Source: an uncultured Mageeibacillus sp. | Lineage (GTDB): Bacteria; Bacillota; Clostridia; Saccharofermentanales; DTU023 | Length of the DNA stretch: 64,000 nt | Direction: 5' to 3' | NCBI GenBank assembly: GCA_964606165.1 | Contig: CAZSFQ010000001.1 | Coordinates: 74,278 to 138,277, forward strand | Notes under the pieces: generated by a model | Database searches by the model: none | Seen by the model: only the letters and a program-made list of their open reading frames with translations | What the model was told of the DNA's origin: nothing | Shown: piece after piece, positions 6,196 through 41,339 of the stretch | How positions within the stretch are numbered: the first letter of the stretch is position 1 | Layout: each line of letters starts with the position of its first letter | Made by a program: the position numbers and the translations under genes

Positions 6196-6199
6196 CGTC

Positions 6200-6274: not shown

Positions 6275-6319
6275 AAGACAGCGGCATGCGCCGGATCTGG
6301 TTGCCCCTGGCGCCTTGCC

Positions 6320-6349: not shown

Positions 6350-6362
6350 CCAAATCCTAGCG

Positions 6363-6438
6363 TGGTGGGACCTGCCGGGCTTGAACCGACGACCTCCTGC
6401 GTGTGAAGCAGGCGCTCTCCCTGCTGAGCTAAGGTCCC
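6363..6438 (-). tRNA. tRNA-Val(CAC)
   Basis: GGGACCTTAGCTCAGCAGGGAGAGCGCCTGCTTCACACGCAGG...GGTTCAAGCCCGGCAGGTCCCACCA; anticodon CAC. Confidence 0.95.
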
Positions 6439-6439
6439 A

Positions 6440-6514
6440 TGGTGACCCGAACGGGAATCGAACCCGTGTCTTCGCCGTGAAAGGGCGATGTCTTAACCCC
6501 TTGACCAGCGGGCC
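6440..6514 (-). tRNA. tRNA-Glu(TTC)
   Basis: GGCCCGCTGGTCAAGGGGTTAAGACATCGCCCTTTCACGGCGA...GGTTCGATTCCCGTTCGGGTCACCA. Confidence 0.96.
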
Positions 6515-6518
6515 GTGC

Positions 6519-6595
6519 TGGTGGCGGCAACAGGATTTGAACCTGTGACACTTCGGGTATGAACCGAATGCTCTGGCCAACTGAGCTATACCGCC
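6519..6595 (-). tRNA. tRNA-Met(CAT), elongator type
   Basis: GGCGGTATAGCTCAGTTGGCCAGAGCATTCGGTTCATACCCGAA...GGTTCAAATCCTGTTGCCGCCACCA; G1 start and the GGTTCATACCC arm typical of Firmicutes elongator Met. Confidence 0.92.
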
Positions 6596-25672: not shown

Positions 25673-26059
25673 ATGGCTCGCCAACCGGATGATCAGGATT
25701 TGTTCTGTGATCTACCCTTGATTCACGAGGAAGCGGTCCGCCGTGTGTTCGAGCTCCTGCCCCGGGAAGATCGAACCGCGGGACTTGCTGAGCTCTTCAA
25801 GGTCTTCGGAGACCCTACCCGTGTCCGTATCCTGCAGGCTTTAGGTCATTCGGAGCTGTGTGTCTGTGACCTGTCCGCCCTTCTGGCCATGTCGCAGTCG
25901 GCAGTCTCCCACCAGCTGCGAATCCTGAGGGGAGCCCGGCTGGTCCGGAATCGCCGTGAGGGGCGGGTGATCTATTATTCCCTGATGGATGATCACGTCA
26001 AGACCATCCTGGATGTCGGCAGTGAGCATCTGGCTGAAGAAGCAGAAAGTGAAAGGTAA
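25673..26059 (+). CDS. ArsR/SmtB (CadC-like) metal-sensing repressor
   Basis: FKVFGDPTRVRIL, ELCVCDL, SQSAVSHQLR.LR and DDHV; N-terminal Cys/His; GGAGG RBS. Confidence 0.92.
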   Translation: MARQPDDQDLFCDLPLIHEEAVRRVFELLPREDRTAGLAELFKVFGDPTRVRILQALGHSELCVCDLSALLAMSQSAVSHQLRILRGARLVRNRREGRVIYYSLMDDHVKTILDVGSEHLAEEAESER

Positions 26060-26060
26060 A

Positions 26061-28061
26061 ATGATGATTGACCAGGGAGGATCGTGCTCAAGCGGGAGCT
26101 GTGATCTGGGAGCAGGCCCCACCTGCGGCCACTGCCGGACCGATCAGGCCATTTCGCTGGATGGTTTTCTCGGGCGGTACCCGCTGCTCGGGCGTTTGAC
26201 CGCACCCTGGATCAGGATCCTGGCGGGCGTCCTTCTCTTCGCCGGTGGTCTGCTGGCCCGTGGTTACGGCACGACTTCCTTTTTGCTTTTCCTTGCGGGT
26301 TACCTGATCGTCGGAACCGGCGTGATCATCCAGGCATTTGCCGGTGCTTTTCGCGGCCATCTTTTTTCCGAACACTTCCTGATGACAGTCGCCACCATCG
26401 GTGCCTTCGTCATCGGTGAGTACGCCGAAGGTTTTGCGGTCATGCTCCTTTACCTGGTCGGTGAGGAGCTGGAACACCGCGCTGTCGACCGGACCAGGCG
26501 TTCCATCGACGCCCTGAACCGGATCCGGCCCGTCACCGCCCACCTGGTCACTGAGGAGGGTGTTGTGGATAAGAGTCCTGCCAGCATTGTGCCCAGCGAC
26601 CGGATTCTTGTTTATCCGGGTGAGCGGATTCCTCTCGACGGCCGGCTGGAAAATAAGGGCGGATCGGTTGACTATTCTGCGCTTACCGGAGAATCAAGGC
26701 CGGTATCCCTTGAGGCGGGAGATGAAGTCATGGCAGGCGCCATCAATGGAGCGGCGCTTCTGACCCTGTCCGTCATCCGCGACGAAAATCACTCAGCTGT
26801 CATGCGGATCATGGAGCTGGCCCAGGAAGCTGGCCAGAAGAAAACCCGGGTTGAAATGTTCACCGAACGGTTCGCCCGTATTTATACTCCCCTTGTCGTT
26901 TTTCTGGCGATCGGCATTGCCCTTTTTCCTCCGCTGGCGTTCGGCTTGGACATCAGCGTCTGGGTCTACCGGGCTCTTAGCTTCCTGGTCATTTCCTGCC
27001 CCTGCTCCCTGGTTATCTCGGTGCCGCTCGCCTACATCGCGGGGATGGGCAACGCCTCGCGCCGTGGCATCTATATCCGGGGCAGCCAGTACCTGGAGGC
27101 TCTGACTGATCTGGACACGGTCATCTTCGACAAGACAGGTACGCTGACAGACGGCACATTCGGGATCACCGGACTGGTGACCGCGCCCGGCGTTTCTTCG
27201 GGCGAGCTGGTGGCTTTGGCGGCGGCCATTGAAGAGCACTCGACTCACCCGGTCGCCGATGCCGTCCGAAGATTCAAGAAGGAATCTCTTGATGTGGCGG
27301 ACGAGACTCCTGCTCTTGACGCGGTCACTGACTTTGAGGAAATCGCGGGACACGGAATGGTGGCCAGGGCCGGTCAACAGCAAATCCTGGCCGGCAACGG
27401 AAGATTAATGGAGATGTTTGGCGTGGAAGGGATTATGGAAGCCAATAATGATCATTCCGGATCCACCATACATATCGCCAGGGAGGAGCGGTGGCTTGGC
27501 AGCTTATTCGCCTCCGACACCTTGAGACAGGGCGCTGTCCAGGCGGTCAGCCGCTTGCGGCATCAGGGTACCTCCTCGATCGCCGTCCTGTCGGGCGACC
27601 GGGAGGAGGCTGTCTTTGGGGCCGGCAAGGCCATCGGTGCCGACCTGGTCGCCTCGGAACTCCTGCCGGAAGACAAGATAAGAGAAGTTGAAAGCCTGCA
27701 GGAACTGACCGGGGGGCGCACAGCCTTTGTCGGTGACGGCATCAACGACGCGCCGGTTCTTCGCCGGTCCGATGTCGGCATCGCCATCGGCGGGCTGGGC
27801 TCGGACGCCGCGGTCGAGGCGGCTGACGTCGTCATCATGACCGATGAATTGGAACGCATTCCCGACGCGGTCTCCATCGCCCGCAAAACAAAACGGCGCG
27901 TCCATGAGAACGTCGCCGTCATCCTGGCTGTCAAAGCCATTCTCCTGGCTCTGGGGGCTCTGGGCATCACGCCTTTATGGGGAGCTGTCTTCGCCGATAC
28001 CGGAGTCATGCTCCTGACCGTGGTCAATTCGCTGCGCGCTTACTACAGCCGCGTATCCTAA
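26061..28061 (+). CDS. cadA: P1B-2-type Zn/Cd/Pb-exporting ATPase
   Basis: TGES, SCPC in TM6, DKTGT, HP, GDGINDAP, TM7 Lys and TM8 DTG; no classical HMA domain, only a short Cys-rich N-terminus. Confidence 0.9.
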   Translation: MMIDQGGSCSSGSCDLGAGPTCGHCRTDQAISLDGFLGRYPLLGRLTAPWIRILAGVLLFAGGLLARGYGTTSFLLFLAGYLIVGTGVIIQAFAGAFRGHLFSEHFLMTVATIGAFVIGEYAEGFAVMLLYLVGEELEHRAVDRTRRSIDALNRIRPVTAHLVTEEGVVDKSPASIVPSDRILVYPGERIPLDGRLENKGGSVDYSALTGESRPVSLEAGDEVMAGAINGAALLTLSVIRDENHSAVMRIMELAQEAGQKKTRVEMFTERFARIYTPLVVFLAIGIALFPPLAFGLDISVWVYRALSFLVISCPCSLVISVPLAYIAGMGNASRRGIYIRGSQYLEALTDLDTVIFDKTGTLTDGTFGITGLVTAPGVSSGELVALAAAIEEHSTHPVADAVRRFKKESLDVADETPALDAVTDFEEIAGHGMVARAGQQQILAGNGRLMEMFGVEGIMEANNDHSGSTIHIAREERWLGSLFASDTLRQGAVQAVSRLRHQGTSSIAVLSGDREEAVFGAGKAIGADLVASELLPEDKIREVESLQELTGGRTAFVGDGINDAPVLRRSDVGIAIGGLGSDAAVEAADVVIMTDELERIPDAVSIARKTKRRVHENVAVILAVKAILLALGALGITPLWGAVFADTGVMLLTVVNSLRAYYSRVS

Positions 28062-28372
28062 CCGCTCTGCTCTTCCGAATAATTCCGCCTCTTGCGAAGC
28101 TCCGCGATCAGGTCTTCAAGAGGAATGGCCGACGCGGCAAGCAGGACGATCAGGTGGTAGACCAGATCAGCGCTTTCGTAGACAATATCACTTTTGTGGC
28201 CATTCTTGGCGGCAATGGCTACCTCAATGGCCTGGACTCCCAGCTTGTTCAGAATTTTATCAAGTCCCTTGTCGAGCAGGTAATTGGTATAGGAACCGGA
28301 TACCGGGTTTTCCGCGCGCTCGATCACGACCTTGTAAAGTTCTTCCAGAATCGCCTCGTGCTTCTCAGACAC
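28058..28372 (-). CDS. hisE: Stand-alone phosphoribosyl-ATP pyrophosphohydrolase (HisE-like)
   Basis: SGSYTNYLLDKGLDKILNKLG...YESADLVYHLIVLL; GTG start with GAGG RBS; converges on cadA with a 4-nt overlap. Confidence 0.85.
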   Translation of the reverse strand: MSEKHEAILEELYKVVIERAENPVSGSYTNYLLDKGLDKILNKLGVQAIEVAIAAKNGHKSDIVYESADLVYHLIVLLAASAIPLEDLIAELRKRRNYSEEQSG

Positions 28373-28487
28373 CGTTTCACCTCTTTCCTTTGATGTTATG
28401 TAAGGATAGCACAGATTTCGCAAGCCTTGCCGGCAATTTCTTATGCATGATTACACGATAATAATGCATTATATATCAAATTTATAC

Positions 28488-28516
28488 TTGACAAAGCCAA
28501 TGGGCAATGGTAGGAT
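28488..28516 (+). promoter_or_regulatory. Orphan near-consensus sigma-A promoter facing the 3' end of alr
   Basis: TTGACA-17 bp-TAGGAT with an extended -10 (TGG), AT-rich upstream region, and no plus-strand gene downstream. Confidence 0.65.
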
Positions 28517-28522
28517 TCGATT

Positions 28523-28608
28523 AATACAATTATAAATTTTCGTTTCTGCTTCTTGCATAGGACAACGGCCGGACCCCCTCCCGGTCGTTTGTCTGTTGCT
28601 GGTTTTTT
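28523..28608 (+). ncRNA. Candidate ~85-nt small RNA with a C-rich loop
   Basis: Downstream of the orphan promoter; 12-bp stem (28561-28593) with loop ACCCCCUC followed by GGUUUUUU; no ORF. Purely predicted. Confidence 0.35.
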
Positions 28609-28621
28609 ATTGGGATTGCAA

Positions 28622-29785
28622 TTAGTCGGCACCGACCCGCGGCACACGCTCACTGATACCGCAAAATAGTTCGTAATCGATGCTACCGTAGAGATCGGTG
28701 ATTTCGCTTGCGTCCTTGCGGATCCATTCATCCTGGCCGAAAAAGGTGACCTGATCCCCGACCTTGACATCGTCAAGCCCGGTGACATCAACTATGCACC
28801 GATCCATGCAAACGCGGCCCCGGATAGGAAGCTCCCGGCCCTTGTGGAAGAAGGAACCACAGTTGGAGAGCAGCCGGGGCAGGCCGTCAGCATAACCCAT
28901 GTTGATGACAGCCAGGACGGAATCAACCGGCGTCGTCCAGGTTCCGCCATAGCTGACCCGCGTTCCCGCGTCCACGCCCTCCACCTGTTCGATCAGACTT
29001 TTAACGGTCATGACAGGCTTGAGCCCCGGCCAGGCTTCCTTGTCCGGGCCGGCCCTGCCTCCGTAGAGTACGATGCCGGGACGGACCAGATCAAAATGAT
29101 AGTCAGGCCCAAGAGGGATGGCCGAGCTGGCGGCCAGATGGCGGATCACGCGGGGAAAGCCTCGTCTTTCTGCCTCGTCCACGGTGTCAGCGAAGCGTTG
29201 TCGCTGCAATTTCGCGTAGTCAGGGTCGCAATCGGCGGTTGCCAGGTGCGAATAGATGCCGGTCACTTTAAGCGACGGCTCACGCGCGGCAGCCAGGATA
29301 ACCTGTACCGTCTTCTCCCTGTGCCTTTCATCTGCCTTCAAGCCCAGCCGGGTCATACCGGTATCGAGCTTGATGTTAACTTCAAGCGGAGGGCCCCCTG
29401 TTTTTTCGGACTGACGGGCAAATTCCGCCACTTCCCCGGCTGTCACGATCGACTGGGTCAGCCGGTAACGTTTGAGGTAGGGGATGTGCTGGCTCCTGGT
29501 TGCCCCAAAAATCAAAATGGATGATCGCGCGCCGCCCTGGCGCAGGGAGATGGCTTCATCCAGGGTCGCCACAAAGAGATGGCGAATGCCCGCTTCTTCC
29601 AGAAGCGGCACGACGAGTTCAACACAGTGACCGTAAGCATTGCCCTTGATCACGGGCGCCATGCCGATCCCCGGGCCGCCTATGTGCGACCGGATGACTG
29701 CCAGATTATTGACAAGGGCGCTTCTGGAAATCTCCGCCCAGACCTTCTTTGTATACCAGGGATCCTTGTCCTGCGAGCACTTCAT
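28622..29785 (-). CDS. alr: Alanine racemase
   Basis: WAEISRSAL, PLP-Lys motif IKGNAYGH, KLDTGMTRLG, YSHLATAD, VRPGIVLY, GYADG, GRVCMD and IDYELFC. Confidence 0.93.
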   Translation of the reverse strand: MKCSQDKDPWYTKKVWAEISRSALVNNLAVIRSHIGGPGIGMAPVIKGNAYGHCVELVVPLLEEAGIRHLFVATLDEAISLRQGGARSSILIFGATRSQHIPYLKRYRLTQSIVTAGEVAEFARQSEKTGGPPLEVNIKLDTGMTRLGLKADERHREKTVQVILAAAREPSLKVTGIYSHLATADCDPDYAKLQRQRFADTVDEAERRGFPRVIRHLAASSAIPLGPDYHFDLVRPGIVLYGGRAGPDKEAWPGLKPVMTVKSLIEQVEGVDAGTRVSYGGTWTTPVDSVLAVINMGYADGLPRLLSNCGSFFHKGRELPIRGRVCMDRCIVDVTGLDDVKVGDQVTFFGQDEWIRKDASEITDLYGSIDYELFCGISERVPRVGAD

Positions 29786-29804
29786 GGCATTTTTACATCT
29801 TTCG

Positions 29805-30866
29805 TCAGATCAGCTTCTTGGTGACATAAGGTGAGGTCATGGCCCGAAGGAGCGCCGCGTAGTCGGGGGAGAAGTCCAGCACATCGCCTACCTTGAAATC
29901 GCGCAGGGCCAGGCTGACATCCAGGATCATATGGTCACTTGAGGCGCCAAGGAAGCCGATATGGGCTTCTTTCGGCGTGAGGGTGTCGCAGCGCGTGTCC
30001 TGTTCGCCGATGGCAAGAATCGCGCGCCACAAGTTCCCGTGGTCTTCAAAGACAGGAATCTCATTGAAGGAATTGGGCCCGATCTTGCCTTGCGGAACCG
30101 AGGGTTTTCGCCTGAGCTCTACGATTTCAGCCCGCAGCGTGAAGACATCTTCATACATATCACCAATGGCCAGCCTGTAAGAAGTCTCAACACCCGTCAG
30201 GAAACCTTCCCCGATGCGAAGATGCGTAATGCCTTTTGGCATCCGGCCTTCCTTGAGTAAATAGAGAGAGCCTGAATTGCCCCCCGAAACGATGGGGAGG
30301 GGAATGGCGAACCGCTCGCGGATAGCTTCGGCCAGCAAGACCAGCTCTTCCAGCTGCTTTTCTTCCGGGATCACGCCGCCGTAACAGTTGAAATTGGCGC
30401 CGATCCCCGCCAGCCAGACACCGCGCAAATTGAGGACCCGCGACGCGACATCAAGCACTTCCTCCGGCATGAAGCCCTCACGCAGATCACCCATTTCGAC
30501 CATGAGAATGACCCCATGCATGCAGTCGAGGGCAAGGGCCGCGTCAGACAGCGACTCGATGACGGCCAGATCCGAATTAAGACTCAGGTCCGCGTAGCGC
30601 ACCGTGTCCATGGCCTGGGAGATCATGGGAATCCGCACCAGCATACGCGACAGTCCCAGGTCCTGGATGGTGGCAAGGTTCTCGACGCGGGCGTCCGCGA
30701 AGTATTCGGCGCCCGCCTCATGCATGGCTTCAACGACAGGCCGCCAGGCACAAAGGCACTTGGTGACGAAATGGATCTGGATATCCTGGGCCGCGGCCAT
30801 CTTGAGCAAGGTTCCGATATTGTGCTTCAATTTGAAACGATCAATCAGCAATTCTGGTAATGCCAT
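29805..30866 (-). CDS. orr: Ornithine racemase
   Basis: Alanine-racemase-family N-terminal fold (VTKCLC, GDLREG, NFNCYGG, VSGGNSGS, HLRIGE, GASSDH) inside the ora cluster. Confidence 0.88.
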   Translation of the reverse strand: MALPELLIDRFKLKHNIGTLLKMAAAQDIQIHFVTKCLCAWRPVVEAMHEAGAEYFADARVENLATIQDLGLSRMLVRIPMISQAMDTVRYADLSLNSDLAVIESLSDAALALDCMHGVILMVEMGDLREGFMPEEVLDVASRVLNLRGVWLAGIGANFNCYGGVIPEEKQLEELVLLAEAIRERFAIPLPIVSGGNSGSLYLLKEGRMPKGITHLRIGEGFLTGVETSYRLAIGDMYEDVFTLRAEIVELRRKPSVPQGKIGPNSFNEIPVFEDHGNLWRAILAIGEQDTRCDTLTPKEAHIGFLGASSDHMILDVSLALRDFKVGDVLDFSPDYAALLRAMTSPYVTKKLI

Positions 30867-30881: not shown

Positions 30882-32234
30882 TCATTTCGTCAGTGAGTCC
30901 ATCAGGAGCTGGACGGCAGCTTCCGGATAGGTCCTGGCGATGACGCCGCAAGACGCCATCAGGTAGTCTTTGTCTATCATAACATTCACTTGTGGAGGCG
31001 GGAAAAGCCGTTCACTGCCTGCCTTTTGCAGTAGATCTGCGACCAGGGAGGTGACGCCGGCCAGCCGGGTCAGGGCGCCTCCGGTCACGATCAAGGCCTG
31101 GACAGCTGTCAGGTCACGCCCCCGGACCACAGTGCGCCTGCCCCGCGCGGTAAAAATTTCGGTTATACGGCCGGCGTGCCGGTCCAGGGCTTCGCGGCAG
31201 CAGGTTCGTACCAGGGGAAGGATCAGGGCTTCCTCCTCCGGTCCCTGCGGTATTTCCGGAACGCCCTGCAGGCCTTCCGTGTAGTCAGCGGGAAGCTGCT
31301 CCCGCTCGTCAGCAGTCATGGCCTGGATAACGTGATCGCGATTGACGAAAACGCCCAGATCCCCTTCCACTGTCCTTTTCGCGAAGGGTTCGGGGTTGAT
31401 CCGAAAATCGATCAGGGCTTCACTCCCCTCTGTCACTGAATGCACATCGGTGGTTGCCCCGCCTACATCGAGGGCGACCAGGTCACCCAGCACCGGGTAC
31501 ATTCTTTCGGCCATGGCCATGACCGCGCCTGGGGTGGGCATGATGGGACCGGTCACAGCCTGGTGGATATGGGCCATCCCGGGCGCTTCAATGATGTGTT
31601 CCTCGAAAATGGCCTGGATGACGATGCGGGCCGGCCCGATATTGAGATTGTCAAGGGAGGGATAGACATTCCCGGTCACATAGACTTTGACCCGGTATCT
31701 TTCTGCCATGGCCCGGATCTCTTCGTCATTGTCGGCATTGCCAGCGTATAAAAAGGGAGTCTGCGGCATGGCTTGCGCCAGCTTTTCGAAATTGAAAAGA
31801 GCTGTCTCCCGCTCCCCGCCATCCGTTCCCCCCGCGATCATGATGATGCGGGGCTTGGCGGCCCGGACGCGCTCAAGGTCATGTTGACGGAGTTTGCCGG
31901 ATGAAACCATGCGCAGGACCGCGCCTGAGCCGAGCGCCGCTTCACGCGCGGCCCGCACCGTCATCTCGGGCACCAGGCCGTGGACAGTCATGGAAAGTCC
32001 GCCCGCCGCCGAACTGGTCGCGAAGACCTCATGGGCTTCGAGACTCTCCCGGCCCAGCCGGGAGGCGAGACGCTGCCTGGCCAGTTCGAGACCCTGCGTC
32101 ACATCCCCCTGGGGAATGGAGGTCGCCGCCGTTGCCTGTCCGAGGAAACGGGGGCGCCCCTCCTTGATTCCCGTAAACGCATTGACGATTGTCGTTGTAC
32201 TGCCGATCTCAGCGACAAGCAGATCAACTTTCAT
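30882..32234 (-). CDS. GlmL/MutL-like reactivating factor of D-ornithine aminomutase
   Basis: VAEIGSTTT, SSAAGGL, AGGTDGG, MPTPGAV, DVGGATTDVHSV and KRTVEGDLG. Confidence 0.88.
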   Translation of the reverse strand: MKVDLLVAEIGSTTTIVNAFTGIKEGRPRFLGQATAATSIPQGDVTQGLELARQRLASRLGRESLEAHEVFATSSAAGGLSMTVHGLVPEMTVRAAREAALGSGAVLRMVSSGKLRQHDLERVRAAKPRIIMIAGGTDGGERETALFNFEKLAQAMPQTPFLYAGNADNDEEIRAMAERYRVKVYVTGNVYPSLDNLNIGPARIVIQAIFEEHIIEAPGMAHIHQAVTGPIMPTPGAVMAMAERMYPVLGDLVALDVGGATTDVHSVTEGSEALIDFRINPEPFAKRTVEGDLGVFVNRDHVIQAMTADEREQLPADYTEGLQGVPEIPQGPEEEALILPLVRTCCREALDRHAGRITEIFTARGRRTVVRGRDLTAVQALIVTGGALTRLAGVTSLVADLLQKAGSERLFPPPQVNVMIDKDYLMASCGVIARTYPEAAVQLLMDSLTK

Positions 32235-32237: not shown

Positions 32238-34493
32238 TCATGATTCCTCCCGCATTTCCCGCCGCCGCTTGACCAGGAAACTCGCGACATCAATTCCGTG
32301 GCTTCCGCGGCCAAAACCGGCATCCATGCCGGACTCAACGGCCGTCTCATTGGCAACCTGAGTGCCTCCTGCCACCAGAATCAATTGCTCGCGAACTCCC
32401 TTTTCAATACAAGTGTCAGCCAGTTTCCTCATGTTCTCGTAATGGACATTGTTGTGGGAGATGATGGTTGAGATCAGGATGGCATCCGCCTTGGTCTCCA
32501 CGGCCGCGTCGACAAGCTTGTCGACGGGACAGGAAGTCCCCAGGTAATGGTACTTGATCCCAAATCCTTCGATCCCCCCGTGCTTGATGTCCAGAATTTC
32601 TTTCATTCCGACGGAATGCTCATCTTCCCCGACCGTGGCCGCGACAACCGTCAGGGGGCTTTCGTGGACATCTGCCCTGATTTCCGCCTCGGACAGGGTT
32701 TCGATTTCTTCCGGCAGGACCAGCTGCGTCAAATCGATATCAAAGCCTACCTTGCCCTTCATCTCGATGTAGGTGCCCTCAGCCGGATGCATGACCTGGC
32801 TGTGGATGACCTCACACTCGGAAAGGCCCATTTTTTCCCCGATCAGGATGGCCGCCGCCTCCGCGTGTCTTTTATCGCAGGGCAGCAGCATGGTCAGGAC
32901 CAGGGTCCCGTCGGCCAAAAACTCAACTTCAGGCCGGATCAGGTTGGTATTGTCGTAGTACTTCTGTCTTTCTTCAATGCGTACATTGACATTGTCGTAG
33001 TCATCGAGCTCATCGATAAACTGAATCTTGGACGGATCTTCGAAGGTGTCTCCGCCGATCGCTTCGCTGGCTGACTGGAACCGGGGCGGGATCTTGTTGT
33101 TGCCGAAATGGACAGACACAGGCGCGAAGTAGTCATCGGCCCGGCGGTAAAGCGTGTCGTTGCCGATTCCCCCGTCGAGTTCGCGCGCGATGCCGTCACC
33201 CTTGCGGTCGGGATACTCGGCGCTGTCAACGAAGAAACCTCCTTCAACTGCGCTGTAGTAGCCGCCTGCCTCAATGATCTCCTCCATGAAGAGGATGGCC
33301 CGCTCCTTGAGCTCCCGGACACGGTCGCCCAGGGGCCCGTCGCGATTGATGTCCACCATCTGTCGGATGCCGTCCAGGCCGTTGAGGCTCTGACGGGCCG
33401 TGTTGACCGCGTTGATGTTGAAGTAGTGCCAGGGCACATTGCGCCCTTCATCAGGCGTGATGGTTGACTGGACGTCGGCCGATGTCAGCCGGGAGATGAC
33501 CATGTTGAGCGTATGCGTCACAGTCGCCTCGCGTGTCTCCGACTCCATGTACTTGGTGTTTTGCTGGGCCCGGATCTTGTAATCGCGGAAGAAATCGCGC
33601 AGGGCCACCGCGTAGGGCAGGTCAAGCCGCATGCAGGGCGCCGGCGGCGCCGTCGGCGGCACACTTGACAGGGCAATATTCTCCGGCTTGATCCCGCACC
33701 GGACTGAAAAGGCAGTATTGATGGCGTGCTGGACCATGAGTTCCGGCATCACCTTCCAGGCTTCCATGGCGGTCGCGTTGGCGTTGTGGGCGCCATCGAT
33801 CTGCAGCTGGCCGCCGTAGGCGATGATGGCCTTGCTCTCGCAGGCGTCAACGAAGCTTCTCAGCATGTTGATGTTGCGGTAGAGCACGTTGTATTGCGGA
33901 TCCTGGTGTACACCGGATACGCCTTCCTCAACAAACATGACGGCGATGTCGGGACCGGCTACCCCTGAAACATAGGAATGGTAGTTGATGGGTCTGCCGA
34001 CCTCATCTTCAATCAGGTCCAGGGCCCGCCGTGTGGCCCGGCATTGTTTTCTGGTGATGGGAATGCCGCCGATCCCCTGGGTGGTCCCTTCGATCAGGGA
34101 ATCGATGTGGGACTGGCCGGTTGTCCGGATGACCATGACATGGTCGGCGCCGGCCCAGGCGGCCATCCGCATACGGCGGACATCGTCTTCAAAACGTCCG
34201 GACGCGATTTCCGTCGTGATCACACAGTCAGGCTGCGGGTCAATGTAACCAAAGCCGCGGCTTCCGGGCAGGGGAACCGACTGTTTCAGCGGTTTCGATA
34301 CTTCATAGTAGCTGAAGTCACCCACCTGTCTCTCTTGATCGCGCTCCTCGCGCCAATGCCAGGGCCGGCGCGGCGAGTGATAATCCTCCAGGCCTTCCAG
34401 GATCTTGCGGATGTCCAGTCTTTGATCCGGCTGGAGTGAAAGGGTGGTTTCACGCGCCGGCACAAGACGGTCTTTTTTCTCCCTGCCGCTCAT
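32238..34493 (-). CDS. oraE: D-ornithine 4,5-aminomutase large subunit (PLP/B12)
   Basis: TEIASGRFEDDVRRMRMAAWAGADH, HQDPQYNVLYRNIN and the B12-binding GEDEHSVGMKEILDIKHGG. Confidence 0.95.
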   Translation of the reverse strand: MSGREKKDRLVPARETTLSLQPDQRLDIRKILEGLEDYHSPRRPWHWREERDQERQVGDFSYYEVSKPLKQSVPLPGSRGFGYIDPQPDCVITTEIASGRFEDDVRRMRMAAWAGADHVMVIRTTGQSHIDSLIEGTTQGIGGIPITRKQCRATRRALDLIEDEVGRPINYHSYVSGVAGPDIAVMFVEEGVSGVHQDPQYNVLYRNINMLRSFVDACESKAIIAYGGQLQIDGAHNANATAMEAWKVMPELMVQHAINTAFSVRCGIKPENIALSSVPPTAPPAPCMRLDLPYAVALRDFFRDYKIRAQQNTKYMESETREATVTHTLNMVISRLTSADVQSTITPDEGRNVPWHYFNINAVNTARQSLNGLDGIRQMVDINRDGPLGDRVRELKERAILFMEEIIEAGGYYSAVEGGFFVDSAEYPDRKGDGIARELDGGIGNDTLYRRADDYFAPVSVHFGNNKIPPRFQSASEAIGGDTFEDPSKIQFIDELDDYDNVNVRIEERQKYYDNTNLIRPEVEFLADGTLVLTMLLPCDKRHAEAAAILIGEKMGLSECEVIHSQVMHPAEGTYIEMKGKVGFDIDLTQLVLPEEIETLSEAEIRADVHESPLTVVAATVGEDEHSVGMKEILDIKHGGIEGFGIKYHYLGTSCPVDKLVDAAVETKADAILISTIISHNNVHYENMRKLADTCIEKGVREQLILVAGGTQVANETAVESGMDAGFGRGSHGIDVASFLVKRRREMREES

Positions 34494-34858
34494 GACACCA
34501 CCTCCCCGAAGAGTTCTTGCGCCTCTTTCCAGTATTTGCCTTCTGCCAGGGCAAGGCCTGTGTCACGGATCTCCATGCCAAGTTTCTCCGACAGACGCCA
34601 GACAAGATGGCCCGCGCCGTGCGGAAGCAGGCGGTGTTCAGTGGCGCCGCTGACGATGGCCTGCGCCTCCAGGCTTGAAAAGCCCATGCGGAGAAGGATA
34701 CTGCGTTCAATGGCCGGTGTCGTATAAATCCTCCCCGCCTCGACGAGGGGGTCGACGATCTTCCCGGCCAGTTCCCAGAAATAGTCATAAAGCGCCTGGT
34801 CGGACATGCCCTCCAGATGCTTTCGCCTTTCTTCAAATTTTTGATCTGTCACTCTCAT
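34490..34858 (-). CDS. oraS: D-ornithine 4,5-aminomutase small subunit
   Basis: FEERRKHL...LYDYFWELAGKIVDPL...TTPAIERSILLRMGFSSLEA. Confidence 0.93.
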   Translation of the reverse strand: MRVTDQKFEERRKHLEGMSDQALYDYFWELAGKIVDPLVEAGRIYTTPAIERSILLRMGFSSLEAQAIVSGATEHRLLPHGAGHLVWRLSEKLGMEIRDTGLALAEGKYWKEAQELFGEVVS

Positions 34859-34876: not shown

Positions 34877-36274
34877 CTAAAGGTCGCGGAGCAAGGCTTC
34901 GGTCTCTTTGGCACCGAGATTGATCTCGGCCGCCATGTAAAGGATCTCTTCCCCGGACCACTGGTCACGGCCTTCCGCCATCCGGCGCAGCGCGGACAGC
35001 CTCAGTCGCCCCATGTCATAATCGCGGACGCGGATCATGGAGGGGTGGGACGGAAGCACGATGGACTGTCCGGCGATCTCTTCCTCCGGGTCACCAAAGT
35101 AAATATCAATCCCGTTTTGCCTTGCGAATGTCAGCTGGGGCATGGGGTGCTTGCCCGCGCCTGTGTATTCGGTCTCCTGGACAACAATGGTCTGGTTTTC
35201 AGGCAGTTCACGCGAAAGCGCGAAGGCTGCCGCCAGTGATGTATTCCCGGCAGGTCCCCGCTCGATCCCCTCCAGGGATGCCAGCATCTCCGTAGTGTAG
35301 AAAACCTCACCCTGCTTAACCAACAGATAGCGGTCAATGTAGCGGAGCGCCCGTGCTGCATTGCGCGGCACATCCGAACGGTCAGGCAGGGAGGCAAAGG
35401 GGATGCCGAATCCCGTATGACCTGTGGTAAAGGATTTACGGTTGAAGTCGCGGTCGGATGCCATGGACAGGCCGGAAAGATCAACGCTGGCAGCGTATAC
35501 CCTGGTATCCTTCAAGCCCGCCTTGATCAGACCGCGGGCGGTCCCGGTCAGGTTGCCGCCCCCTGCGTGGGTCACCATGACGATTTCGGGCACGAGATCA
35601 TAGTCCTCGCGGCATTGCCGGGCAATCTCGACTCCCAGGGTCTCAATCCCCGCGATGGCTGAGGGGGAGTAAAGGGAGGCATTGTAGAAACCGGTTTCCT
35701 CAAGCAGGCTGAGCGCGTAGTAGAAAAGTTCCGGTCCTACGGTCATCTGGATAACCTCGGCCCCCAGGGCTTCACATTTGCGCTGTTTTTCCAGAATCTC
35801 CGGCTGCCCCTTGATCCCGCTGTCGTAACACTCCTGGATGACGATGCACTTGAGCCCCAGCCGGGCGGCCATGCTGGCAACCGCGGCGCCGTAGTTGCCG
35901 GATGTCGCGGCAATGACGCCCTCATAGCCCTTGCGCCTGGCGTCCCAGACAGAAAGAGCTGCCCGGCGCGCCTTGAAGCTTCCCGAAGGGTTGGCGGCCT
36001 CATCCTTGACCAGGATGCGGGCGCCATAGCCCGGTTTGGCAAGTTTTCTTGCCAGGTCTGTGATATTTTTCATATCCATGAGCGGCGTATTGCCGACGCC
36101 CATGTCTTTTTGGATCCTGGCCACTTCATCGACCGTGATTCCCACATCCGCCATCATGGCCTCGTAGTCAAAGACGATGCCACCGCCTTCATAGTCGCTG
36201 TAATCGATCCCCAGGGCCTTGCCCATGATCTCATTTTGTCTGGCCATGACGGCTTCATAAGTCATATCTTTCAT
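34877..36274 (-). CDS. ortB: 2-amino-4-oxopentanoate thiolase beta subunit
   Basis: GVGNTPL, KDEAANPSGSFKARRA, ATSGNYGAAVA, THAGGGN, DRSDVPRNAARALRY and QETEYTGAGKH. Confidence 0.93.
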   Translation of the reverse strand: MKDMTYEAVMARQNEIMGKALGIDYSDYEGGGIVFDYEAMMADVGITVDEVARIQKDMGVGNTPLMDMKNITDLARKLAKPGYGARILVKDEAANPSGSFKARRAALSVWDARRKGYEGVIAATSGNYGAAVASMAARLGLKCIVIQECYDSGIKGQPEILEKQRKCEALGAEVIQMTVGPELFYYALSLLEETGFYNASLYSPSAIAGIETLGVEIARQCREDYDLVPEIVMVTHAGGGNLTGTARGLIKAGLKDTRVYAASVDLSGLSMASDRDFNRKSFTTGHTGFGIPFASLPDRSDVPRNAARALRYIDRYLLVKQGEVFYTTEMLASLEGIERGPAGNTSLAAAFALSRELPENQTIVVQETEYTGAGKHPMPQLTFARQNGIDIYFGDPEEEIAGQSIVLPSHPSMIRVRDYDMGRLRLSALRRMAEGRDQWSGEEILYMAAEINLGAKETEALLRDL

Positions 36275-37635
36275 CGGCCGTCACCTCCAAACAGCATGTC
36301 CCGGACCTGCTGGTGAATGACCTGCAGTTCGGGAATGTAGTCACCATAATCATGCGACGGCGCGAGGTCTCGGCTGGTCAGGCTGCCTTCAACCGTGCGG
36401 CCGCTCATGGTTTGCACGCGGACACGCTCCCCTGCCTTGGCCGCCTCAAGGAGCCAGCCTTTTGTAAAGGCGATCAGGGGCGTCTTGGCTGTGTCCTCAG
36501 GAACCTGAGGCGCCCGCTGCCCGACAGGGAGAACAGTCTCCTGGATGACGGCGTAATCGCCCTTCCTGAAATCTGTCTTTCTGTCTCGATCCAGCTGCTC
36601 GGCATAGTTGCCTAAAATCGCTCTTGGCACGGGCAGGTCCAGCATGGAACGCAGGCCCGGTTTGGCGGAGAGCACATGGGGAATCATATTGACTACCATG
36701 GCGATGGTTCCGATCCCGCCCGGCGTCTCGGGGACGATGGACAGGTTCATATCGTAGCCGTCGGCGTGAATGGTGACGTAATCACCGGTATTGACCCCTT
36801 CATCCTCGGGGCAGATCTGCTGCGGGTGATCGAGATGGATGAAAACCTTGCCATCCGCCGTCCGTCCGTAGCTCTGCTGGCGGATACCGGCCAGATGGCC
36901 TTTTTTCGCCTCCCCGTAGGCCGATTTTCGGTCGACATTGGTAATGATTGGTTCCCGGGTCTGCTCGATGCTGGTCAGTTCGACTCCCATGCCGGCGGCG
37001 ATCATTTCCATGGACTCTGGGAAACCAACGTGGCCGGCCAGGCTGTCTTCAGCGATGCGGCGGTCGAACTCCTCCACGGGAATACCGACACCCTGCTCCT
37101 CCATGACCGCCTTGCCGAAGGGAGCCAGGTCATTGATCCGCGCCGCGTCGATCGATTCGACGTGTTCACAGGTCCCGCTCACAGCCAGGATCAGGTAGTC
37201 GAGGACGAAGCCGGGGTTGATCCCCGTGCCAAGCACCGCCACCTTGCGCTGTCTGGCCAGGGCGTCGATCCTGTCCGACATTTCTTTATTCTGGGCCCAG
37301 GGCCAGGCCATCTCCTCAGCGGTTGAGATAATATGGACACCCTGCTCCAGGCAGAAGATGAGTTTGTCATACTGGGCTTCGACAAAGGAGTCGGTCGCCA
37401 GGATAACGATATCGCAAAGGTCATTACGGACAACCTCGGTGATGTCACCGGTGATGATGACGGGCGGCCGGTCCCCCCGCTCAATGCCCAGATACGAATA
37501 GACTTCCTGACCGATGAGTTTGTCCCACCGGTCGCAAACACCGGAGATGACAAGCCCCTCCTTGGAGGCGATCATCTTTCCGATGCCGCTGCCCATGGCG
37601 CCGAAACCCCACAAGGCCACCCTGATATCCCGCAT
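36271..37635 (-). CDS. ord: 2,4-diaminopentanoate dehydrogenase fused to the AKP-thiolase alpha subunit (Ord-OrtA)
   Basis: N-terminal WGFGAMGSG, STAEE, LGTGINPGF and GGIGTIAMVVNMIP (Ord); the C-terminal ~100 aa KGDYAVI...RAPQVPEDT.KTPL...KGWL...GRTVEG...HDYGDYIPEL is OrtA-like; single ORF. Confidence 0.9.
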   Translation of the reverse strand: MRDIRVALWGFGAMGSGIGKMIASKEGLVISGVCDRWDKLIGQEVYSYLGIERGDRPPVIITGDITEVVRNDLCDIVILATDSFVEAQYDKLIFCLEQGVHIISTAEEMAWPWAQNKEMSDRIDALARQRKVAVLGTGINPGFVLDYLILAVSGTCEHVESIDAARINDLAPFGKAVMEEQGVGIPVEEFDRRIAEDSLAGHVGFPESMEMIAAGMGVELTSIEQTREPIITNVDRKSAYGEAKKGHLAGIRQQSYGRTADGKVFIHLDHPQQICPEDEGVNTGDYVTIHADGYDMNLSIVPETPGGIGTIAMVVNMIPHVLSAKPGLRSMLDLPVPRAILGNYAEQLDRDRKTDFRKGDYAVIQETVLPVGQRAPQVPEDTAKTPLIAFTKGWLLEAAKAGERVRVQTMSGRTVEGSLTSRDLAPSHDYGDYIPELQVIHQQVRDMLFGGDGR

Positions 37636-37688: not shown

Positions 37689-38609
37689 TTACAAACTGAT
37701 GTGTGTCCCTGTTTTCCCCGCGATCCCGTCCCGGGCGCGTTCCAGTGAGGTGATCAGGGCGGTGCGGCCCTTGCCGGACTTGGCGAAGGCAACGCTGGCC
37801 TCCACTTTCGGCAGCATGGACCCGGGCGCGAAGTGCCCTTCTTTCATGTATTGTTCCATTTCGGCGGCCGTGACGCGGTCCAGCCACTTCTCCTGCGGCT
37901 TGCCGTAATGCAGGGCCACTTTTTCAACGGCTGTCAAAATGATCAGATAATCGGCGTCGACAATCTCCGCCAGTATTTCTGAAGCGAAATCCTTGTCAAT
38001 GACGGCGGCCACACCTTCCAGATGATCTCCTTCACGAACCACGGGGATGCCCCCGCCGCCAACTGTGATGACGACCTGACCGTCACGGATCAGGGCGTTA
38101 ACCGTCCGGTCTTCAACCACAGCGACCGGTTTCGGTGAAGCGACCACGCGGCGGTAACCGCGTCCGGCATCCTCTTTCATGATGAAGCCGGTTTTCTCCG
38201 CGATCTGCTCCGCTTCTTCCTTGCTGTAAAAGGAGCCGATCGGCTTGGTCGGATCCTGGAAGGCGGGATCATTTTTGTCCACCACAACCTGGGTCACAAC
38301 GGTCGCGACGGGCCTGTCCAGGCCGCGCGACAGCAGCTCCTCGCGGAGCGCGTTTTGAAGGTGGTAGCCGATGTAGCCCTGGCTCATGGCACCGCATTCC
38401 GGAAAGGGCATGGCCGGGACCACGCCGCTGTCAAAGGCCAGGTTGATCATGCCAACCTGCGGTCCGTTGCCGTGGGCCAGGACAAGTTCATGCCCCTCGG
38501 CGATTAAGTCCGCGAGGGGGACGGCCGTCTGGCGTACAAGTTGGCGCTGTTCCTGCGCTGTATTGCCAAGGGCGTTGCCACCCAGGGCGACGACGATACG
38601 TTTTTTCAC
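37689..38609 (-). CDS. arcC: Carbamate kinase
   Basis: VALGGNAL, HGNGPQVG, SQGYIGY, DPTKPIG, GRGYRRVVASP, VIDKD and GSMLPKV. Confidence 0.95.
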   Translation of the reverse strand: MKKRIVVALGGNALGNTAQEQRQLVRQTAVPLADLIAEGHELVLAHGNGPQVGMINLAFDSGVVPAMPFPECGAMSQGYIGYHLQNALREELLSRGLDRPVATVVTQVVVDKNDPAFQDPTKPIGSFYSKEEAEQIAEKTGFIMKEDAGRGYRRVVASPKPVAVVEDRTVNALIRDGQVVITVGGGGIPVVREGDHLEGVAAVIDKDFASEILAEIVDADYLIILTAVEKVALHYGKPQEKWLDRVTAAEMEQYMKEGHFAPGSMLPKVEASVAFAKSGKGRTALITSLERARDGIAGKTGTHISL

Positions 38610-38653: not shown

Positions 38654-39649
38654 TCAGCGGCCGATTGTGGCGACCATGATCGCCTTAATCGAGTGTAAAC
38701 GGTTTTCGGCCTGGTCAAAGACGCGGGAGTGCTTGCTGCGGAAAACTTCATCCGAACACTCCATGGCGGTCAGGCCGTATTCCTCATGTATCTGTCTGCC
38801 GATGCTCGTATTGAGGTCGTGGAAAGCCGGCAGGCAGTGAAGGAAGATGACGTCGGTGTTGCCGGTCATCTCCACCATTTTCATATTGACCTGGTAATCC
38901 CTCAGCTGGCGGATCCGCTCCTCGAACATGGCCTCTTCGCCCATGGAGACCCAGACATCGGTGTAAAGGACATCAGCGCCTTTGACAATGTCGAGGCTTT
39001 CAGAGCATTCGATGCTGCCACCCGTTTCTTTCGCCACAAGCTTCATCTCCGCGATAAGCCCCTCATCGGGCCACAGCCCGCGTGGCGCGAAGGCGGCAAA
39101 ATCCATACCCAGCTTGGCGCAGCCGATCATGAGCGAGTTGCCCATGTTGTTGCGGGCGTCGCCGGCGTAAACCAGTTTGACCCGGTTGAGGGGTTTCGGC
39201 ACGTACTCGCGGATGGTCATCATGTCGGCCAGGATCTGCGTCGGATGGTAAAGATCCGTCAGCCCGTTCCAGACCGGCACGCCGGCGTGGGCGGCCAGCT
39301 CTTCCACCGTTTCCTGGGCAAAGCCCCTGAACTCAATTCCGTCATAAAAACGGCCCAGTACCCTGGCCGTGTCCTCGACCGATTCCTTCTTGTTCATCTG
39401 CGAATCGCCGGAACCCAGGAAGGTGACCCCAGCCCCTTCGTCCATGGCCGCCACCTCAAATGCGCAGCGCGTCCTGGTCGAGGTTTTTTCGAAAAGAAGG
39501 ACAACGTTTTTACCCTTGAGCAGATCACCGGGAATGCCAAGCCTCTTTTTCGTCTTCAGCTCGGACGCCAGGTCGAGAAGCCATCGGATTTCATCGGATG
39601 AGAAGTCTTTTAGCGTGAGAAAATGCCTGCCTTTTAAACTGATGGCCAT
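38654..39649 (-). CDS. arcB: Catabolic ornithine carbamoyltransferase
   Basis: FEKTSTRTRCAFE, WNGLTDLYHPTQ, YTDVWVSMGE, FLHCLP and AENRLH. Confidence 0.95.
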   Translation of the reverse strand: MAISLKGRHFLTLKDFSSDEIRWLLDLASELKTKKRLGIPGDLLKGKNVVLLFEKTSTRTRCAFEVAAMDEGAGVTFLGSGDSQMNKKESVEDTARVLGRFYDGIEFRGFAQETVEELAAHAGVPVWNGLTDLYHPTQILADMMTIREYVPKPLNRVKLVYAGDARNNMGNSLMIGCAKLGMDFAAFAPRGLWPDEGLIAEMKLVAKETGGSIECSESLDIVKGADVLYTDVWVSMGEEAMFEERIRQLRDYQVNMKMVEMTGNTDVIFLHCLPAFHDLNTSIGRQIHEEYGLTAMECSDEVFRSKHSRVFDQAENRLHSIKAIMVATIGR

Positions 39650-39682
39650 GAATAATCTCCTTTATTTTTGCTAGCCGCCATA

Positions 39683-39711
39683 AGACTAGCCCATAAATAA
39701 AAATAATACAA
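39683..39711 (-). promoter_or_regulatory. Putative internal promoter upstream of arcB
   Basis: TTGTAT-17 bp-TAGTCT in an AT-rich patch ~35 nt before the arcB start. Confidence 0.45.
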
Positions 39712-39991
39712 TTTACGCGCACCAGCGCGTCCCGCGCACTTTTGCCGCTTGCGACCCGGTTGATCCAAGCGGGTCATCGGCGGCCATCTTCCGGGCTTGT
39801 CTTCCTGGTCAAATTCCAGTGCCTTGCCCAAGTCGTGGATATTGGCGATGATCTTGAAAATGATCCTGGCCGGCAGATCAAATGGATATTTCCCCAAAAT
39901 GGGTTCACCATAAATAAAGGAGACAGCTCTGCCTGATCCGGAAAGGGAGGGGCAGGTAAATCCAGCGGTCAAGGCGCGTTTTGAGGACTGC

Positions 39992-41212
39992 CTAGCCGAT
40001 GTCTTCCCGCCACAGGGGCTGGGTCATGCATCGCGGGCCGCCGCGTCCCCGGGACAATTCGGACGACACAATTTCATGGACTTTTACGCCCGCTTCCCGA
40101 AGCAGGCGGTTAGTGACCCGGTTTCGGTCATAGGCAATCACTTCGCCTGGCGCGATGGCCAGGGAATTGGCGCCGTCATTCCATTGTTCGCGCTGCGAAT
40201 CAATCCGGCTCCCCCCGCCGCAGCGGATCAGCTCCACCTCGTTCAAGCGCAGGTAGGTTTTGAGAATGGACGACAGGTTATTTCCAAGATTCTTGATCCG
40301 CAGCTCCTCCCGCGCGTTGACCGTAATGTCGTAGAGTTCCAAAGGCCCCTCGATCTCGGGATGGATGGTAAAGATATCGCGGTCGACCATGGTGAAGACC
40401 GTGTCCAGGTGCATGAAGGCCCTGCGCTCTGGAATCATGAAAACCAGGACATGGCGGAAACCGTCACCAGCTGTCAGAACGCGCTGAGCCAGGGTCTTGA
40501 CCGCCGCTGTTTCCGTTCGCTGGGAGACACCGACAGCCAGGACTTCGCTGGAGAGGATGAGGATGTCGCCCCCCTCCAGGGTGGCGTTTTCCCCGCGGCT
40601 GAAATAGAGGGGGACCTGCTCAAACAAGGGATGGTATTTGATGACATAGTGAGGAAGAAGCGATTCACGCTGCCTGGTTTCCGCCCACATACAGTTGACC
40701 GAGACACCGCGGCCGATGACCGACATGGGATCACGTGTGAAGTAGAGATTGGGCATGGGATCGAAGAGCAGCATCTTCTTGCGGTCGAGCAGGTCGAGCG
40801 AGGTTCCGTTATGCCGGTATTCTTCACGTCTCAAGCCGGCCATGACAATGGTGACAAGCTTCTGTATGTCATCCATGGAGAGCAAATACTCATAAAGGTG
40901 CGGCAGGGACGGCAAAAAGACGTGGGCCTCGCTTAGGAATTCGTTGAGGAAGGCCTGGCGGTGTGCGGGATCGGCCAGCACGTCCGCGACAATGTCGTTG
41001 GTATGGTAGACCTCGGCACCCGCTTCTTCCAGGATAGCGACGAACTGATCATGCTCATCACCGGCTGAGACATGGTCGGGAATGTCTTCGAAAAGAAATT
41101 CTTTCATGGTAGGCGGTGTCAGATTGTCCAGTTCGGGGCCCGGTCGGTGAACAATCACACGCCTCAGCTTCCCGATCTCGGAATACACCTTTACGCCGTT
41201 TCGATCAGCCAT
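39992..41212 (-). CDS. arcA: Arginine deiminase
   Basis: VYSEIGKL, HRPG.EL, PMPNLYFTRD, LEGGD, FMHLDTV, EQWNDGAN and ELSRGRGGPRCM. Confidence 0.96.
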   Translation of the reverse strand: MADRNGVKVYSEIGKLRRVIVHRPGPELDNLTPPTMKEFLFEDIPDHVSAGDEHDQFVAILEEAGAEVYHTNDIVADVLADPAHRQAFLNEFLSEAHVFLPSLPHLYEYLLSMDDIQKLVTIVMAGLRREEYRHNGTSLDLLDRKKMLLFDPMPNLYFTRDPMSVIGRGVSVNCMWAETRQRESLLPHYVIKYHPLFEQVPLYFSRGENATLEGGDILILSSEVLAVGVSQRTETAAVKTLAQRVLTAGDGFRHVLVFMIPERRAFMHLDTVFTMVDRDIFTIHPEIEGPLELYDITVNAREELRIKNLGNNLSSILKTYLRLNEVELIRCGGGSRIDSQREQWNDGANSLAIAPGEVIAYDRNRVTNRLLREAGVKVHEIVSSELSRGRGGPRCMTQPLWREDIG

Positions 41213-41309
41213 AAATACCTCCGGTCAATTGGATGCGACTGGAGAGGGATCAAATTAGGAAATACAGGATTTTGTCAAATTCCCCCTCAGACAAATCCCC
41301 TCGCGACTC

Positions 41310-41339
41310 ATTATAAACGTGTCCGGCAGACATTGGCAA
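41310..41339 (-). promoter_or_regulatory. Sigma-A promoter upstream of arcA
   Basis: TTGCCA-18 bp-TATAAT directly after the V-ATPase D stop codon. Confidence 0.65.

Follow-up and report, generated by a model that had tools for sequence, protein, structure and literature searches.

RsaE represses mRNAs of arginine catabolism, its C-rich motifs pairing with G-rich motifs, and rocF of Staphylococcus aureus is down-regulated in this way (PMC6158497). In Lactococcus lactis the small RNA ArgX represses the arc operon, alongside ArgR (PMC6586332). Here we describe a candidate small RNA (sRNA) gene located at the 3' end of an arginine/ornithine operon of an uncultured member of the Clostridia. The analysis started from one window, i.e. 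the whole stretch of 64,000 nucleotides, and was extended to the relatives of its source genome. The candidate very probably represents a real and previously undescribed sRNA family.

The candidate resembles RsaE/RoxS (RF01820; Staphylococcus, Bacillus) in being a free-standing Firmicute sRNA of about 100 nt that has a promoter of its own and ends in a Rho-independent terminator. Base pairing of unpaired C-rich sequence with G-rich or Shine-Dalgarno (SD) sequences would be a further likeness, which in our case is predicted. However, RF01820 is absent among the cmscan matches at E<=10, and there is no homology in sequence or structure. The candidate has one C-rich loop (ACCCCCUC) and a CU-rich strand rather than duplicated CCCC motifs; a second C-rich element, AUCCCAC, is seen in genus g4 only. 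It is also confined to 3-4 genera of uncultured Clostridia, where it is syntenic with a single operon, and in the genus of the window (g1) it is predicted to bind a G-rich hairpin loop that precedes the SD rather than the SD as such.

ArgX, too, is a small RNA transcribed from a promoter of its own, and it down-regulates arc (arginine deiminase) mRNAs, which for our candidate are the predicted target. But ArgX lies within the 3' UTR of argR, with arcC1 as its proposed target, whereas the present gene is on the opposite strand at the operon's 3' end. Here the two genes are on separate contigs, argR on C12 and the sRNA on C1 beside alr, and pairing is predicted with the arcA leader. The sRNA is thus a member of neither the RsaE/RoxS nor the ArgX family. 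There is also a likeness to CopA/CopT and RNAI/RNAII, as the predicted recognition starts between two apical loops with 7-9 GC-rich base pairs. Those antisense RNAs are encoded in cis on plasmids and are fully complementary to their targets, whereas here the partner is 12.7 kb away, the complementarity is limited to the loops, and the leader has a competing copy of the sRNA loop sequence.

The locus and the sRNA gene

The non-coding spacer at 28373-28621 separates the stop codon of alr from a HisE-like gene, both genes being on the minus strand (Table 1). The operon that ends with alr is about 13 kb long, it has the order arcA-(arcB)-arcC-ord::ortA-ortB-oraS-oraE-reactivase-orr-alr, and its route leads from arginine through ornithine to acetyl-CoA and alanine. 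According to the alignment of relatives the HisE-like gene starts at GTG 28372 (MSEKHEAILEELY...) and not at TTG 28423 as given in the list of open reading frames. This gene has an extended -10 promoter of its own (TGcTATCCT, hexamer at 28403-28408), which is kept in the relatives as TGnTATnCT.

Table 1. Features of the sRNA locus, the neighbouring genes and the arcA leader in the window.
Feature	Position	Strand	Description
P-type ATPase	25989-28061	+	converges on HisE-like gene
Stand-alone PRA-PH (HisE-like) gene	28058-28372	-	Pfam PF01503; divergent from sRNA promoter
Direct-repeat boxes TGCATGATTACA / TGCATTATATAT	28443-28477	.	candidate transcription-factor site
sRNA promoter	28488-28516	+	TTGACA 28488-28493, 17-nt spacer, TG 28508-28509, TAGGAT 28511-28516; extended -10
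Predicted sRNA primary transcript, ~85-86 nt	28523-28608	+	inferred from promoter and terminator
CU-rich single-stranded motif CGUUUCUGCUUCUUGCAU, core UUCUGCUUCU	28541-28558	+	nearly invariant across g1, g4 and g10; flanks diverge
Terminator hairpin	28561-28593	+	12-bp stem, one bulged U, 8-nt loop ACCCCCUC
U-run GGUUUUUU in U-rich tail GGUUUUUUAUU	28601-28608 within 28601-28611	+	plus-strand intrinsic terminator
alr (alanine racemase)	28622-29785	-	Pfam Ala_racemase_N and Ala_racemase_C; last gene of arc/ornithine operon; convergent with sRNA
orr	29805-30866	-	operon member
MutL-like reactivase	30882-32234	-	operon member
oraE	32238-34493	-	operon member
oraS	34490-34858	-	operon member
ortB	34877-36274	-	operon member
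ord::ortA fusion	36271-37635	-	operon member
Carbamate kinase	37689-38609	-	operon member
Ornithine carbamoyltransferase	38654-39649	-	operon member
arcA	39992-41212	-	operon head
arcA promoter and leader	41213-41339	-	TTGCCA-18-TATAAT at 41339-41310, 11/12; leader ~90 nt; predicted target
arcA SD GGAGG	41222-41218	-	after C-box
Leader C-box CCCUCUCC	41248-41241	-	genus form CCCCCUCC; 25-30 nt past G-run
Leader hairpin P1	~41298-41267	-	loop GAGGGGG at 41288-41282

The first-pass annotation of this DNA had proposed that the plus strand of the spacer encodes a stand-alone sRNA whose loop is rich in C. The parts from which it was assembled, i.e. the promoter TTGACA-17-TAGGAT with its extended -10, the 12-bp hairpin and the U-run that follows it, are all present. 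The promoter scores 10/12 with the extended -10. The start of the sRNA was placed 7 nt past the -10 box and its end at the U-run. The 5' arm of the hairpin is at 28561-28572, the loop at 28573-28580 and the 3' arm at 28581-28593. The U-run begins 7 nt past the stem; if the stem is lengthened by 3 bp (GCA/UGC), this gap shrinks to 3 nt. The window by itself gives weak evidence for an sRNA gene: 2 promoter-like sites were counted as against 1.0 +/- 1.1 in shuffles, and the z-score of the hairpin fold is -2.3. The locus is judged to be more than a chance arrangement because there are 34 homologous copies of it.

Scanning 27000-30000 and 28430-28630 against Rfam (cmscan, E<=10) gave noise matches only and no family for the sRNA. 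There is no conserved open reading frame in the sRNA copies, which contain single-base indels and do not keep the minus-strand ATG; a small minus-strand reading frame (MQEAETKIYN...) was rejected, as neither its ATG nor its frame is conserved. The locus thus has what is generally asked of a free-standing sRNA gene: its own promoter, its own intrinsic terminator, no conserved reading frame, and conservation that goes beyond the flanks. We infer that the sRNA is expressed.

The first-pass annotation also described the sRNA as antisense to the end of the operon. The sRNA ends by 28611, about 11 nt short of the alr stop codon (28622-28624), and does not overlap the coding sequence; it is therefore convergent with alr and not antisense to the alr coding sequence. 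An antisense role would require transcripts of alr to continue past the hairpin.

Conservation and genomic context

A DNA search of the relatives recovered one conserved block (~28541-28593, 78-96% identity), the remaining spacer having diverged. The block was found in 20 of the 22 other genomes of the genus and in 2 of a sister genus. The covariance model R1, built on 18 copies (alignment A1), matches the window at 28525-28612 with 95.7 bits and finds one copy each in 23/23 genomes of g1, 7/7 of g4 and 7/8 of g10. One of the two g7 genomes has a match at E=0.003, and in the other the contig ends inside oraE. R1 had no match in six other genera of the family and essentially none in the 46 genera that make up the rest of the order, with one borderline match at E~1e-3. 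The bearers are labelled in an exact-pattern scan as uncultured "Mageeibacillus sp.", "Clostridiaceae bacterium AS..." and "Clostridiales bacterium DTU032", and by these labels they are MAGs from anaerobic digesters. The same scan returned 45 matches, of which about half fall in unrelated phyla and seem to be fortuitous.

The promoter is kept in all 28 assessable copies, i.e. TTGAC(A/T), a spacer of 17-18 nt, the -10 hexamer and the same distance to the hairpin; the extended TG before the -10 is present in the g1 and g10 copies and absent in g4. Across the 34 copies (alignment A5) 95.6% of the stem cells are paired and 8 of the 12 pairs show compensatory changes, which is the outcome of the covariance analysis that had been suggested for this spacer. 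None of 500 shuffles reached the observed values, and the slide controls were also far lower. The core of the loop, CCCCUC, is invariant, and the loop CCCCUCC together with the single-stranded UUCUGCUUCU is nearly so.

The strand can be read from the wobble pairs. There are 23 stem cells with G-U or U-G that become A.C mismatches on the minus strand and only 5 C.A cells, all of them at the poorly aligned base of the stem; the gene is assigned to the plus strand because the wobble pairs fit this strand only. A U-rich tract directly follows the stem in most homologues (U6 in g4), and this tail is seen on the plus strand only; in the closest relative, L117, no U-run follows the hairpin. Read on the minus strand, the stem contains A.C mismatches, a U-tract is missing and the z-score of the fold is -0.24. 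A stable stem with a U-tract on both strands, as in a bidirectional intrinsic terminator, was not found here, the failing strand being the minus one. It had been considered from the outset that the hairpin might be an unconserved terminator of alr and nothing more. As the hairpin is conserved, its G-U pairs are compatible with the plus strand only and the minus strand has no U-tract, it is not merely the alr terminator. With the promoter, the covarying stem and the wobble signal, the proposal of a free-standing plus-strand gene is well supported.

It is conspicuous that the sRNA gene has the same place in every bearing genome: it is directly 3' of alr, convergent to it and about 6 kb from oraS, and this holds even where the alr products share just 31-47% identity. 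The HisE-like gene is next to the sRNA in most genomes and absent from several, and in one sub-lineage a LuxR-type regulator is found instead. Wherever a genus has the sRNA, its operon begins with arcA. In g5, g8 and g9, on the other hand, the genes from ord to alr are present, the arc genes are absent, and the homologous position is without the sRNA. Three genomes have a liv-type ABC transporter between arcA and arcB.

The two TGCAT half-sites noticed in the first pass are at 28444-28448 and 28465-28469, exactly 21 bp apart, between the divergent promoters of the HisE-like gene and the sRNA. Both boxes are kept as TGYATnAWTAHA in about 9 of 19 copies of the genus and are absent from the g4 and g10 copies. 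ARG boxes are tandem 18-bp imperfect palindromes (TNTGAATWWWWATTCANW) that are 2-3 bp apart. Against the ARG-box consensus the two boxes score 13/16 and 11/16, values equalled or exceeded at 47 and 1104 sites, respectively, in the non-coding part of the genome. A genome-wide scan for tandem sites with a position weight matrix found no second tandem TGCAT site, i.e. no regulon, and the arcA promoter has no similar box. The genome has one ArgR (Arg_repressor_C match at C12:17572-17772; the sRNA is on C1). The proposed control of the sRNA by ArgR did not hold up and is unsupported by the sequence data: the consensus matches are unremarkable, the boxes are direct repeats and not palindromes, they are missing in g4 and g10, and there is no second site. 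Some signal may act through the TGCAT boxes, which could serve either the sRNA promoter or that of the HisE-like gene.

Candidate targets of the sRNA

The ribosome-binding regions of ord and oraS, which the first-pass annotation considered as the targets, read CAGGAGGGAGGAGGGUAGCAUAUG and AAAGGGAGGGAUGAGAGUG, respectively, just as it had given them. Among 1430 translation-initiation regions ranked by pairing with the loop, ord is at rank 30, oraE at 36 and oraS at 175. The two proposed sites are above average, but this kind of complementarity is generic, and it is the arcA leader that changes in step with the sRNA. The functional link to the arginine/ornithine operon is supported in part, by the synteny with its 3' end and by the co-occurrence with the arc genes, but not with ord and oraS as the preferred sites.

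In all 19 genome pairs the arcA leader contains a perfect complement of 6-9 nt to the loop of the cognate sRNA, and in 17 of the 19 the complement is at least 7 nt long. Where the loop changes, the leader changes with it: the loop and leader sequences are CCCCCCUC and GAGGGGGG in G005 (whose own leader C-box keeps five C's), UCCCCCUCC and GGAGGGGGA in G007, CCCCCUCU and AGAGGGGG in G010, ACCCCCUC and GAGGGGGU in L119, L121 and L126, and CCUCCUG and CAGGAGG in L132. Cognate pairs have longer complements than permuted ones (p=0.0003 for all pairs and p=0.005 within g1, in a permutation that ignores phylogeny). In the genome of the window the match to arcA is just 7 nt (GAGGGGG), a heptamer that occurs in about 1.4% of the leaders, and about 10% of the leaders have a match of at least 7 nt to the extended loop.

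The arcA leaders of g1 share a hairpin, P1, that was found in 10/10 leaders of the genus with GAGGGGG in the apical loop and covarying stems (UUUGUC/GACAAA, CUUGUC/GACAAG, UUCCGC/GCGGAA). P1 was judged sequence by sequence because RNAalifold on the MAFFT-aligned leaders, in which the two types of P1 stem are misaligned, recovered only a helix between the G-run and the C-box. The sRNA loop has the same sequence as the leader C-box and is complementary to the G-run. The leader has alternative folds, i.e. G-run with C-box or C-box with SD, according to a thermodynamic prediction in which the state of minimum free energy differs between genomes. A genome-wide search for G-loop hairpins gave 87 matches, almost all in coding sequence, and the arcA leader has the only GAGGGGG in a hairpin loop that belongs to a purely non-coding 5' leader of the window's genome. 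The leader matched no Rfam family, even at permissive thresholds.

In the other genera the predicted contacts are longer. The sister genera have duplexes of 9-20 bp with the arcA leader, in which the arcA SD is complementary, and in both g4 and g10 the arcA leader contains boxes of 9-11 nt that are complementary to the single-stranded motif. For g4 the sRNA and the leader are predicted to form a bipartite duplex of 18-20 bp (-27.6 kcal/mol, z=-4.8). In g10 the loop CCCCUCCCG or CCCCUCCUG matches the arcA SD CGGGAGGGG or CAGGAGGGG, the single-stranded motif pairs with a box at about -60 in the leader (duplex GAGAAGCAGAA:UUCUGCUUCUC), and a second duplex, GAUAACUCG:CGAGUUAUC, is formed by the 5' part of the sRNA, CGAGUUAUC. 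In g7 a divergent form of the single-stranded motif covers the arcA SD.

For the g1 form of the single-stranded motif, which is the best-conserved element of the sRNA, no recurrent site was found in the arcA leader (z about 0) or in the rest of the operon. Scanned with this motif, glgD, glgC, the gene of an EamA transporter and that of PepF have z of about -3 to -4. The start codon of PepF, an M3 oligoendopeptidase, was rejected as a conserved target: the match, 16 contiguous bp in the window's own genome, becomes poorer as the relatives diverge, and 14/23 genomes of the genus lack the gene. Duplex scans using the 14-nt loop with its closing pairs were swamped by GC-rich coding matches and were uninformative.

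Taken together, the best-supported target in these comparisons is the arcA leader, rather than ord or oraS. Given the synteny and the co-evolution of loop and leader, the sRNA most likely tunes the translation of the operon. We put the probability that it acts in trans on the leader of arcA, the first gene of the tail-to-tail operon, at roughly 0.55; that it would be a regulator dedicated to the arc/ornithine operon by way of this leader has about even odds, or marginally better.

Proposed mechanism and alternative explanations

We propose that 28523-28608 on the plus strand would be a trans-acting regulatory RNA of about 86 nt, transcribed from a sigma-A-type promoter and ended by its own intrinsic terminator. 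It would carry two pyrimidine-rich recognition modules, the single-stranded UUCUGCUUCU and the apical loop ACCCCCUC. In g1 the loop would form a kissing complex of 7-9 bp with the GAGGGGG loop of P1. The C-box of the leader (CCCCCUCC; CCCUCUCC in the window) may pair either with the G-run or with the arcA SD; with the sRNA on the G-run the C-box would become free, the SD would be sequestered and the translation of arcA would be lowered. In the sister genera the sRNA would pair with the arcA SD directly and with the extended boxes farther upstream in the leader. In this model repression is the presumed direction, and the sRNA and the leader C-box are thought to compete. The complete switch, in which the sRNA is a trans-acting mimic of the C-box that kisses P1, displaces the helix of G-run and C-box and closes the SD, is a tentative suggestion and on balance an unlikely one.

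Other explanations have to be weighed against the arcA-leader reading. The sRNA could be a global regulator of the RsaE/RoxS type that covers many G-rich sites (ord, oraE, glgCD), with arcA as one target among them or a coincidental one. RsaE operates in this manner (PMC6158497), and both the high ranks of ord and oraE for loop pairing and the four genes at z of about -3 to -4 agree with such a role, as does the ability of CUUCUU to pair with AGGAGG via G-U wobbles. However, the PepF match fades among the relatives, many of which have no such gene, and the synteny with one operon and the loss of the sRNA along with the arc genes point to a dedicated role. We consider a global regulator doubtful, though not far-fetched; it would be compatible with an action on the arcA leader. 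Somewhat more doubtful is a role in cis, in which the sRNA or its strong promoter controls the 3' end or the stability of the operon mRNA, or hisE, by antisense pairing or interference of convergent transcription. The invariant position beside alr would fit, the HisE-like gene is next to the sRNA in most genomes, and read-through is plausible with a minus-strand hairpin that has A.C mismatches and no U-tract. Yet a purely cis-acting antisense RNA needs no conserved sequence, while here two short motifs stay the same from genus to genus as the rest of the spacer diverges; the HisE-like gene comes with a conserved promoter of its own and is missing in several sRNA-bearing genomes; and the co-variation with a leader 12.7 kb away is left unaccounted for.

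Two further readings are very improbable. The hairpin might be a structural terminator or insulator between the convergent units, its promoter being fortuitous or a source of spurious transcription, and it is true that promoter and fold are marginally above the shuffles when the window is taken alone. But such an element needs no invariant loop, no upstream motif and no promoter at a fixed distance, and the latter is kept in 28/28 copies from four genera. An equally slight chance is given to a sponge whose CU- and C-rich motifs titrate an RNA-binding protein. It would explain two pyrimidine-rich motifs, one single-stranded and one in a loop, of which the former is without an mRNA partner in this genus; against it, no candidate protein is tied to the locus, and the extended duplexes of g4 and g10 with the arcA leaders fit base pairing.

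Under the arcA-leader reading the target logic would be unusual, because the regulator duplicates an element of its own target leader and the predicted contact is between loops upstream of the SD. Moreover, the sRNA gene is oriented towards the operon's 3' end, so operon read-through and sRNA synthesis could interfere mutually; if this is true, the two ends of one 13-kb operon would be joined in a feedback loop. The practical value is modest, i.e. the annotation of a new RNA family and of the arcA leader element, and perhaps a compact switch for heterologous hosts. To our knowledge, very few regulatory RNAs have been described in anaerobic amino-acid-fermenting Clostridia, and we know of none for the arginine deiminase/oxidative-ornithine (Stickland-type) pathway. 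Strict synteny combined with cross-genome co-variation can assign sRNA targets in organisms that cannot be cultured. If our interpretation is true, abundant uncultured bacteria of biogas reactors would have an sRNA family that is new to Rfam and has a testable target, the arcA leader.

The arcA leader

The leader of arcA is a conserved structured RNA that consists of a covarying hairpin presenting GAGGGGG, a C-box and the SD sequence, and a comparison of this leader with Rfam returned no match. Two alternating states appear among its predicted folds. The leader, the predicted target of the sRNA, may thus be a translational switch even apart from that role. The signal for such a switch might be something besides the sRNA.

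Genome G002 provides a rearranged example. Here arcA has shrunk to a remnant of about 30 codons, and the leader, with its G-loop and C-box intact, now precedes arcC, lying about 300 nt upstream of it (locus L123).

Complementarity, copies and neighbourhood of the sRNA

The start of a PepF-like (M3 oligoendopeptidase) gene, located on another contig of the same genome, is AUGCAAGAAGCAGGAA and forms 16 contiguous complementary pairs with the conserved sRNA motif. This complementarity is limited to the genome of the window and its closest relative.

Some genomes give a second, weaker match to the covariance model built on the sRNA copies, and these matches are possibly paralogues or fragments of the sRNA. 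A decayed copy is found between alr and the hisE-like gene in genome G072 of the sister genus g10 (L105), in which the hairpin is kept, the mutated loop reads AACUCUUU, and nothing is left of the motif UUCUGCUUCU.

The HisE-like and P-type ATPase genes are convergent with a 4-nt overlap, and there is no terminator between them. In the sub-lineage that has no HisE-like neighbour, the sRNA promoter is immediately preceded by a co-oriented gene for a LuxR/GerE-type regulator of 356 aa, a candidate for local control in that sub-lineage.

Features discussed in this section (window positions unless a contig or locus is named)
Feature	Location	Strand
tRNA genes (five, clustered)	6092-6595	-
HisE-like/P-type ATPase overlap	28058-28061	-/+
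ord::ortA	36271-37635	-
arcA-arcB spacer	39650-39991	-
arcA leader	41213-41303	-
PepF-like gene	C26:632-2389	+
LuxR/GerE-type gene	L016 210-1280	+
Weaker model match, G025	C25:17088-17173	
Weaker model matches, G004 (two)		
Weaker model match, G065	C71:4733-4813	
liv-type transporter insertion (G005, G001, G034)	L120, L124, L128 with L143-L145	

Gene order and content of the operon

Pfam places DAP_DH_C (Ord) and OrtA domains in a single ORF, which confirms the ord::ortA fusion; this fusion is kept throughout the loci of the family.

The spacer between arcA and arcB is 340 nt long and holds a further C-box, GCCCCUCCCUUUCC. The motif UUAUGGGCUAGUCUUAUGGCGG stands immediately ahead of the arcB RBS and is also conserved in genomes G005 and G001. 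A 112-aa ORF called within the spacer had no match in Pfam and is probably not a gene. In three relatives arcA and arcB are separated by an inserted liv-type ABC transporter of five genes (a binding protein, two permeases and two ATPases), which may be the arginine/ornithine uptake system that is absent from the operon of the window.
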